Below are positions 1,574-4,486 of a stretch of DNA of 4,631 nucleotides, piece after piece. Numbering within the stretch: position 1 is the first letter of the stretch; each line of letters starts with the position of its first letter. The notes beneath the pieces are model-generated. The model made no database searches. It was not told where the DNA came from and worked only from the letters and a program-made list of their open reading frames with translations. The translations under genes were made by a program, and so were the position numbers. This DNA comes from a virus (taxonomy: Monodnaviria > Loebvirae > Hofneiviricota > Faserviricetes > Tubulavirales): the IMG/VR virus record IMGVR_UViG_2667527953_000022; one strand, 5' to 3'.

Positions 1574-3815
<2,242 letters not shown>

Positions 3816-3848
3816 GACCTCATGTCCTCATGATGAAAGACAAAAAAG

Positions 3849-3877
3849 AACATACTCAAAAAACATCATGAACACAA
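3849..3877 (-). promoter_or_regulatory. Candidate sigma70 promoter for the orf82-rep operon
   Basis: On the minus strand: -35 TTGTGT (plus 3872..3877), 17-nt spacer, -10 TATGTT (plus 3849..3854), about 35 nt upstream of the orf82 ATG. A TCATGA palindrome (3866..3871) lies in the spacer. Prediction by eye only. Confidence 0.3.
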
Positions 3878-3883
3878 GATGTA

Positions 3884-3913
3884 TTAACAACATTTGCTCA
3901 AGTGCTCTAGAGT
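3884..3913 (+). promoter_or_regulatory. Candidate sigma70 promoter for the divergent regulator gene, overlapped by a 14-bp near-palindrome
   Basis: -35 TTAACA (3884..3889), 18-nt spacer, -10 TAGAGT (3908..3913). The near-palindrome GTGCTCTAGAGTAC (3902..3915, 6 of 7 pairs complementary) overlaps the -10. It is back-to-back with the minus-strand promoter. Weak match; by eye only. Confidence 0.25.
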
Positions 3914-3948
3914 ACATGATGGCTAAATACAAAAAAGGGGGCTAAATA

Positions 3949-4149
3949 ATGGCTGAAAAAAGAAAGAGTTATAACGTGCCAAACGAGAAGTATCTAAAGC
4001 TAGAAAGATTAGCTATTGATGCAAGTCAAAAGATAGGAAGGAGCATAAAATGGACCGAAGTACTGTCTTACATGATAGATCACTACGCAAAAGACGCAGC
4101 AATAGATATGGTAAGTCAGGAAGAACTTAAGAAAAAAAAGGCAATGTGA
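3949..4149 (+). CDS. Arc/Mnt-like ribbon-helix-helix transcriptional regulator, 66 aa (putative repressor)
   Basis: ATG at 3949 with AAGGGGG 7 nt upstream. Layout is a short N-terminal strand (KSYNV), helix A (NEKYLKLERLAIDASQKI), a G-R-S loop, then helix B (IKWTEVLSYMIDHY), matching the RHH fold and the N-G-R-S loop of Arc. Divergent from the rep operon, as repressors are in several inoviruses. AT-rich codon usage (ATA, AGG). Confidence 0.6.
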   Translation: MAEKRKSYNVPNEKYLKLERLAIDASQKIGRSIKWTEVLSYMIDHYAKDAAIDMVSQEELKKKKAM

Positions 4150-4212: not shown

Positions 4213-4368
4213 ATGCAGATAACCAGTGACTTAATCCTTGACCTGCTGATAAAGCATTTCGTTGTTGGCAGCATCACAGGCATGACAATATTCAGCCTGA
4301 TAACGCTTGTCCCACCGTTGGTGATGACCATACACAAAAAACTAAGTAAGGACACTGAAATCCTTTAA
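4213..4368 (+). CDS. Hypothetical 51-aa hydrophobic peptide (not in the supplied ORF track)
   Basis: ATG at 4213 with AAGGAA 2 to 5 nt upstream, TAA at 4366..4368. Translation: MQITSDLILDLLIKHFVVGSITGMTIFSLITLVPPLVMTIHKKLSKDTEIL, one predicted TM segment then a basic tail. Shares the ATA-rich codon bias of the adjacent regulator. Overlapped by antisense ORFs, so the coding strand is uncertain. Confidence 0.25.
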   Translation: MQITSDLILDLLIKHFVVGSITGMTIFSLITLVPPLVMTIHKKLSKDTEIL

Positions 4369-4374
4369 GGTTCA

Positions 4375-4466
4375 GTGCGCACAATGACGTTATGTATAAA
4401 AAGGCCGCTGCGGTGGAGAGTATCGCAGCGGCCTTTTCAACATAACGCGTGTCACATTGTGCGTAC
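4375..4466. other. Putative XerC/D-dependent attP: two inverted dif-like sites forming an imperfect 92-nt forked hairpin (CTXphi type)
   Basis: Site A (4375..4401) is GTGCGCACAATG-ACG-TTATGTATAAAA. The reverse complement of site B (4434..4466) is GTACGCACAATG-TGACACGCG-TTATGTTGAAAA. The left arms match 11 of 12 and the right arms 10 of 12, with central regions of 3 nt versus 9 nt. The arms resemble E. coli dif (GGTGCGCATAA / TTATGTTAAAT). No integrase is encoded in the window. Confidence 0.5.
4398..4437. terminator. Perfect 10-bp GC-rich hairpin flanked by A- and T-tracts; bidirectional rho-independent terminator and apex of the attP hairpin
   Basis: AAAAA (4398..4402), GGCCGCTGCG (4403..4412), 11-nt loop gtggagagtat, CGCAGCGGCC (4424..4433), TTTT (4434..4437). 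The T-tract follows the stem on both strands. It lies between the plus-strand regulator unit and the minus-strand ORF ending at 4487. Confidence 0.55.
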
Positions 4467-4486
4467 TATTATTGTTATTCACTGTG

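Follow-up and report, generated by a model that had tools for sequence, protein, structure and literature searches.

The 4,631-nucleotide window analysed here (IMG/VR record IMGVR_UViG_2667527953_000022) comes from a filamentous (Inoviridae-type) prophage of Escherichia coli. It carries the gene for a 66-residue protein that is divergent from the phage replication (rep) operon, the two being separated by a 133-bp intergenic control region (3816–3948). Structure prediction gives the protein a ribbon–helix–helix (RHH) fold, and eight CATG-type boxes, phased at 8 bp, lie in and at the edge of the control region. These observations suggest that the protein probably coats the boxes and thereby represses its own gene and the replication operon, a reading that we hold with fair though not high confidence. 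An initial annotation had described a divergent Arc-like regulator, CATGA repeats, a 14-bp near-palindrome and back-to-back promoters, and had taken the whole for a compact lysogeny-type switch. All of its coordinates are right: TCATGA at 3828 and 3866, CATGATG at 3829 and 3915, the near-palindrome at 3902–3915 and the 66-residue open reading frame (ORF) at 3949–4149 on the plus strand. Its interpretation changes in several respects.

The regulator gene and its translation signal are as follows:

3949–4149, plus strand: 66-residue RHH regulator (WP_001409658.1; phrog_2503, function unknown)
3935–3941, plus strand: Shine–Dalgarno-like AAGGGGG, 7 nt upstream of the regulator ATG, as read from the sequence

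The regulator protein is identical in the window and in two related prophages, TD225-C4 and cS51a. The cS51a gene differs from that of the window at 22 of 201 nucleotides, and all 22 changes are synonymous (0 non-synonymous), which marks it as a genuine gene kept by purifying selection. The protein comprises a ribbon (K4–P11, KRKSYNVP), helix A (12–29), a loop (G30–K34) and helix B (35–65). An AlphaFold2 monomer model (mean predicted local distance difference test (pLDDT) score 83) shows an extended coil at residues 1–11, a helix at 12–29, a turn at G30–K34 and a helix at 35–65, bearing out the strand, helix, G-R-S loop and helix layout that had been read from the letters. In a duplicated relative, P0040, the strand–helix–helix unit was modelled twice (predicted template modelling score 0.76). 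Two structural features of the RHH superfamily (MetJ/Arc clan) were found, namely an N-terminal β-strand with two helices and a short glycine-containing turn, and two intertwined chains with their strands arranged as an antiparallel ribbon. The predicted structures of the regulator and of P0040 thus support the RHH assignment, and the ribbon would be the part that binds DNA sequence-specifically.

Assignment to a named family is less direct. Searches of Pfam and NCBIfam with the regulator returned nothing significant (zero matches in NCBIfam), and no helix–turn–helix family was found in them either. Among 73 family members, all Pfam matches were below threshold: ParG in five of the 73 (best E value 0.019) and RHH_9 and RHH_3 in one each. 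By the gathering score, which that best match does not reach, the regulator falls outside the curated ParG family (PF09274). A profile search of the Protein Data Bank (PDB) with the regulator family gave TTHA0139 (E value 0.039) and ParG (E value 0.14). When profiles were aligned with hhalign over the whole RHH domain, the family matched ParG with a probability of 78% (single sequence) or 67% (22-member ParG alignment), placing KRKSYNVP against ParG KRVNVNFD, with helix A and the loop six residues longer; the corresponding value for CopG was 3.7%. The ParG query retrieved annotated ParG proteins. By these alignments, ParG is the nearest sequence relative of the regulator. The Arc/Mnt label of the initial annotation is not retained, as hmmscan of the protein and the 73 family members gave no Arc match in Pfam and hhalign gave 0.3% for Arc and 0.1% for Mnt.

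The family itself is small. A profile search of 1.8 billion representatives returned only 101 relatives, five of which are tandem duplications of the domain. Five matches of the profile search (P0026, P0098, P0100, P0087 and P0108) were left out of the alignments. These are repetitive proteins of up to 4,589 residues, with 4–14 stretches that match the helical part of the profile, and the matches are probably compositional or due to coiled coils.

The control region contains more CATG-type repeats than expected by chance. CATG occurs five times in 3812–3948 and 16 times in the other 4,494 bases of the window; five occurrences were reached in 11 of 5,000 dinucleotide-preserving shuffles, or in 15 of 5,000 when any palindromic tetramer was allowed. 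None of 500 shuffles reached the weighted count of TCATGA matches (at most one mismatch) in the control region, so the CATGA repeats pointed out initially are indeed non-random. More aptly, they are eight hexamers that resemble TCATGA and share a CWWG core, arranged in three arrays with a strict 8-bp register:

3812–3833, array A: GCATGA (3812), TCATGT (3820) and TCATGA (3828), over the rep-operon leader
3866–3879, array B: TCATGA (3866) and ACAAGA (3874), over the −35 element and upstream spacer of the proposed rep promoter
3898–3919, array C: TCAAGT (3898), TCTAGA (3906) and ACATGA (3914), over the spacer, −10 element and +1 position of the regulator promoter

Five pairs of boxes lie exactly 8 bp apart against 0.48 expected, a number reached in none of 2,000 shuffles. 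Comparison of the window with cS51a shows that substitutions avoid the boxes: none of the 48 box positions differ, against seven of the 62 non-box positions in 3812–3921 (one-sided Fisher P = 0.015). The three boxes of array C have no substitutions in cS51a, and array A, which overlaps the start codon (CAT, 3813–3815) and Shine–Dalgarno region of the first gene of the rep operon, is identical there.

The near-palindrome GTGCTCTAGAGTAC at 3902–3915, which had been put forward as an operator element, lies within array C. Six of its seven pairs are complementary. As an independent operator it was rejected: 183 of 2,000 region shuffles (9%) hold a near-palindrome as long, the window holds eight of such quality, and this one is kept only in the near-identical cS51a copy. 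Its core, TCTAGA, is one degenerate box of array C, and because the near-palindrome is centred on that box, a second operator is not required. Arc and Mnt have one operator of about 21 bp, to which a dimer of dimers binds; no counterpart of it was found here, the only palindrome of operator size being at chance level. The suggestion of a dimer of dimers on one site thus gives way to three arrays of two or three boxes in an 8-bp register, in the style of ParG and MetJ.

The arrangement recurs in relatives. The regulator is a conserved gene, divergent from the rep operon as originally described, and it occupies this position beside at least three unrelated types of Rep protein (GPA, 666 residues; about 400 residues; and 371 residues); across the regulator family, the divergent rep operon is the conserved partner. 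Boxes and the 8-bp register are found again in non-alignable control regions next to regulators that are 57–58% identical, which answers favourably the question, raised with the initial annotation, of whether the repeats are conserved in related elements. In the clearest case, an IMG/VR inovirus (L016) with a 58%-identical regulator (ribbon KRATYNVT) and a 371-residue Rep, the non-alignable control region holds three exact and five one-mismatch TCATGA boxes, three of the latter with a CATG core (0/500 shuffles), and five box pairs at 8 bp (1/2,000 shuffles). One L016 array (2912–2933), the positional homologue of array B, covers the −35 element and spacer of a rep-directed promoter with 9/12 consensus matches.

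Box type also follows the ribbon. Every one of the four control regions that accompany a regulator with an R-[ST]-Y-N ribbon contains an exact TCATGA, as does one of the eight that accompany other ribbons (Fisher P about 0.01). The E100341 phage (L013, NZ_CM128606.1) encodes a 60-residue paralogue, 41% identical and with the ribbon KRKAIAIT, next to a Rep that is 97.4% identical to that of the window; its boxes are GTTAAC, again in an 8-bp register (0/2,000 shuffles). Degenerate short boxes with an invariant 4-bp spacer, that is, an 8-bp repeat of the ParG type, are seen in the window, L016 and L013. In E24377A a 70-residue family member is paired with CGCATGCGC repeats, and members with a KRTTMAI ribbon are paired with ATGCAT-rich repeats, so that the box types seen in the family include TCATGA, GTTAAC, GCATGC and ATGCAT-like.

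The E100341 paralogue (3580–3762, plus strand) is unannotated. It is located within a 369-bp ‘gap’ between the Rep gene and an annotated 70-residue family member; the phage thus has two family members in tandem, and it is without the 82-residue leader gene of the rep operon.

Two of these comparisons bear on the mobility of the unit. In cS51a, the regulator and boxes of the window stand beside an unrelated Rep, with homology running from about 3790 to about 4165, and E100341 combines nearly the same Rep with another regulator and other boxes. At the level of sequence comparison, regulator plus operator behaves as a cassette that is exchanged between phages with unrelated Reps.

To relate the arrays to transcription, the genes of the rep operon and the promoters have to be considered:

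3567–3815, minus strand: 82-residue leader gene, the first of the rep operon (phrog_3104, function unknown)
1574–3574, minus strand: replication endonuclease of the phage GPA family, 666 residues (PF05840, 2e-48; phrog_91, 1e-127), presumed to be the main target of repression
3884–3913, plus strand: predicted promoter-like site of the regulator, −35 TTAACA (3884–3889), 18-bp spacer, −10 TAGAGT (3908–3913)
3849–3877, minus strand: proposed rep-operon promoter, −35 TTGTGT (3877 to 3872), 17-bp spacer, −10 TATGTT (3854 to 3849)

Back-to-back promoters had been anticipated here, and the regulator side stands at consensus level, with 9/12 matches in a consensus scan and both hexamers unchanged in cS51a. 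On the rep side, nothing in the control region passed the scan threshold, and the promoter listed is proposed from its positional homology with TTGAAC-17-TATTAT in L016. A LexA box was not found in the control region; the matches inside coding regions are at chance level.

By analogy, the regulator most likely works as ParG-type RHH repressors do. ParG represses its own promoter as dimers that coat degenerate tetramer boxes, invariably 4 bp apart; the bases are read by residues 2, 4 and 6 of the ribbon, and the boxes of a ParG homologue are CAT(T/G) (PMC3413123). The regulator dimers would similarly insert the two-stranded ribbon KRKSYNVP into the TCATGA-like boxes with their CWWG core, with R5, S7 and N9, at ribbon positions 2, 4 and 6, as the putative base-reading residues. 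Neighbouring dimers would touch across the 8-bp centre-to-centre spacing, as those of ParG and MetJ do, and helix–helix contacts between them would set that spacing. In this way dimers could coat the three arrays, eight boxes in all, of the divergent control region. Occupancy of array C, over the −10 element and +1 position of the regulator promoter, would result in negative autoregulation. Arrays B (over the −35 element and spacer of the rep promoter) and A (over the rep leader) would jointly repress the operon of the 82-residue gene, the GPA-type Rep and downstream phage genes. We infer from this arrangement a repressor or immunity role for the protein: together with its boxes it would form an immunity or replication-control cassette, exchangeable between phages, like rstR/ig-2 of CTXphi.

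Several observations weigh against repression through these boxes. Chance alone gives boxes with two mismatches at about 5% of positions, which makes the weak boxes at 3874, 3898 and 3906 individually uncertain. Array A coincides with the Shine–Dalgarno sequence and start codon of the 82-residue gene, and part of its conservation could therefore be translational. The rep-side promoter has only 7/12 matches. Among relatives of the same ribbon class, two show little or no enrichment: in L002 the count of boxes at distance 8 was reached in 450 of 2,000 shuffles, and in L026 a single exact box was found (shuffle probability 0.056). The set of elements compared is also small, and its members are not fully independent. 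The upstream DNA of the homologue in phage If1 is quite different, with GC-rich hairpins in place of box arrays. Finally, no curated family model was reached, the best Pfam match being the sub-threshold ParG hit in five of 73 members, and neither Foldseek with the model nor phmmer against PDB sequences gave a match.

Some of these points would also fit repeats that are not an operator at all, serving as translation signals or as the site of a host factor, or present by chance, while the RHH protein acts elsewhere. The overlap of array A with translation signals, the chance-level frequency of the weak boxes and the non-significance of L002 and L026 taken alone are in keeping with this, as is the binding of the host regulator RovA to the rep promoter region in YpfPhi (PMC4266046). 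We nevertheless regard it as improbable: enrichment and the 8-bp register recur in L016 and, with a different box, in L013, always beside family members, box type tracks ribbon class, and substitutions avoid the boxes. Still more improbable, to the point that we give it very little weight, is that the protein is the DNA-binding half of another system, either an antitoxin whose toxin is a 51-residue membrane ORF or a ParG-like partition protein. Its nearest sequence relative is indeed ParG, and the conserved 51-residue hydrophobic ORF lies downstream on the same strand. However, no ParA- or ParF-type ATPase gene was found in the window or the annotated prophage, and no known toxin fold lies nearby. 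Only three residues precede the ribbon, whereas ParG carries a flexible N-terminal tail of some 30 residues and has a ParF gene as its neighbour, and the resemblance to RHH antitoxins of type II systems (ParD, MazE or CopG type) is limited to the fold, with neither a cognate toxin nor a toxin-binding C-terminal extension. In cS51a the regulator and the small ORF are about 340 bp apart, the genes that follow the regulator differ in other relatives, and what stays constant beside it throughout the family is the divergent rep operon. Both readings, antitoxin and partition, were rejected for want of partner genes.

A third alternative accepts that the protein binds the boxes and proposes that it governs replication or copy number during chronic, non-lysogenic infection, like CopG or omega, with no role as a lysogeny or immunity repressor and no switch. 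This seems to us unlikely, though the least so of the three. If1, an Ff-like phage not known to lysogenise, has an intact family member with quite different upstream DNA, which is compatible with such a role. Only one regulator is present in the window, there is no LexA box, and an omega-like RHH protein has been suggested for this function in the episomal inovirus PMBT54 (PMC10534721). On the other side, the present element occurs as tandem copies integrated at dif, and its module varies and is exchanged as heteroimmunity cassettes are; moreover, governing replication is compatible with an immunity role, and the two are not mutually exclusive. The evident single regulator, the lack of a LexA box and the family member in If1 also leave a bistable switch, and the lysogeny-type switch of the initial annotation as stated, unsupported. 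Repression of the rep operon and of the regulator gene through phased boxes is the reading that we prefer.

The If1 gene (L025, NC_001954.1; about 5119–5310, minus strand) encodes 63 residues (MATPKRTTMAIVAERK...). It is unannotated and falls inside a feature labelled ‘major intergenic region’ (4834–6039). In L002, a Scandinavium prophage, an 88-residue ORF (5202–5468, plus strand; ATIRLKKQESAELQDLA...) follows the regulator; its N-terminal half appears RHH-like by eye, and it scores weakly against the family profile (E value 0.0012 in a four-sequence search).

A broader proposal is that phrog_2503 is an inovirus-wide family of RHH immunity regulators, the If1 gene included, in which the eight-residue ribbon sets specificity and the helical scaffold fixes the 8-bp register, so that cassettes shuffled between phages with unrelated Reps define heteroimmunity groups among the dif-integrating E. 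coli inoviruses. We offer this tentatively, at slightly less than even odds. Both RHH repressors coating short phased boxes and divergent repressors in integrating filamentous phages are familiar; the assignment of phrog_2503 to this kind of repressor, the box map and the cassette exchange are new. The literature on RHH regulators of inoviruses yielded only the omega-like ORF of PMBT54 and the PfiA antitoxin of Pf4, and the phrog_2503 family was not described in it. No new principle is revealed, and the kind of regulator is an ordinary one, in a family that no database annotates. The value lies in a concrete, testable model for one element, made up of an identified protein, eight boxes at defined positions and two promoters (one of them proposed by homology), within a group, the dif-integrating filamentous prophages of E. 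coli and relatives (CUS-1 and YpfPhi), whose regulation has hardly been studied experimentally. The natural series of swapped regulator–operator cassettes could explain mutual exclusion among filamentous phages, and a ribbon-to-box code in a ParG-like scaffold is of the kind already used for artificial RHH transcription factors. Un-annotated genes are also flagged in the RefSeq records of If1 and E100341.

The remaining features of the window are those of an integrated filamentous phage:

minus strand: major-coat-like gene and small membrane ORFs
minus strand: 141-residue protein (phrog_30648)

Homologues of the 82-residue leader head rep operons of several unrelated Rep types and are absent from others. 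They form a conserved family of small proteins (MxIVYYDY...GEWDFF.SFDEL...GDDFVLVS), in which the version of the window has an internal insertion relative to versions of 63–65 residues. Among public sequences, a tandem prophage of E. coli TD225-C4, beside hipBA, matches the window best (97.6% identity). When the complete window was compared with a phage collection by megablast, no match was returned, and Rfam gave no RNA family in the window.

Direct tandem prophage copies lie at the dif region in both TD225-C4 (L001, 1–9972) and cS51a (L011, 2262–17307), an arrangement also described for CTXphi and YpfPhi. In the window, two inverted dif-like sites (4374–4401 and 4440–4467) flank a GC-rich hairpin. 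The predicted fold of 4374–4467 as single-stranded DNA is a long hairpin with a fork (−35.2 kcal/mol, z −8.4), resembling the folded attP of CTXphi. It is precisely in this stretch, at a dif-like site and with the XerC-arm sequence TTATGCGCACC, that the prophage–chromosome junction beside hipA is located in TD225-C4. The inner hairpin, with T-runs on both strands, could be a bidirectional terminator. The 51-residue hydrophobic ORF (4213–4368, plus strand), downstream of the regulator and possibly co-transcribed with it, is kept in E24377A (L012, 9378–9551) and cS51a (L011, 9704–9844) although the surrounding phages differ.

Among known RHH proteins, TraY of the F plasmid has two RHH units in tandem in one chain, whereas the regulator of the window has a single-copy domain and no relaxosome context. 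Like it, Arc and Mnt of phage P22 are small RHH proteins with a G-R-S turn ahead of helix B, and they too are phage repressors with divergent or overlapping promoters; they show no detectable sequence relationship to it. The single 21-bp operator of Arc is occupied by a dimer of dimers, in contrast to the three arrays in 8-bp register found here. Closer in their mode of action are MetJ, CopG and omega, whose dimers cooperatively coat tandem short repeats and act as repressors, including of their own genes, and the met-boxes of MetJ likewise form an 8-bp repeat (PMC3413123). These proteins differ from the regulator in genetic context; no corepressor domain is evident in the regulator, and sequence similarity is weak (hhalign 3.7% for CopG).

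ParG of plasmid TP228, a centromere-binding protein and autorepressor, matches the regulator in the layout of its sites. It shares arrays of degenerate boxes with a fixed 8-bp repeat in either orientation, eight boxes in number, and boxes located at or after the −10 element of its own promoter (PMC3413123). In contrast to ParG, the regulator of the window is below the Pfam threshold, has no long flexible N-terminal tail and lacks a ParF partner gene or partition context; its box core is CWWG (TCATGA) rather than ACTC, and the spacers of array A are not AT-rich.

In genetic setting, the nearest parallels are RstR/ig-2 of CTXphi and the RstR-like YPO2273 of YpfPhi/CUS-1, in which a dif-integrating filamentous phage encodes a small regulator divergently from its rep operon, with the operators in the intergenic region that the two share (PMC4266046). 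The regulator of YpfPhi at the equivalent position ‘awaits experimental demonstration’ (PMC4266046). The element in the window shows the same organization, a small regulator divergent from the rep operon with a shared intergenic target, and this synteny is preserved beside at least three Rep types. As with RstR/ig-2, the module is variable and is swapped between otherwise similar phages. RstR is a helix–turn–helix protein, whereas the regulator here has an RHH fold and no homology to RstR, and its control region is without a LexA box. By position and modularity, the cassette is a counterpart of rstR/ig-2 and YPO2273, built on an RHH protein.
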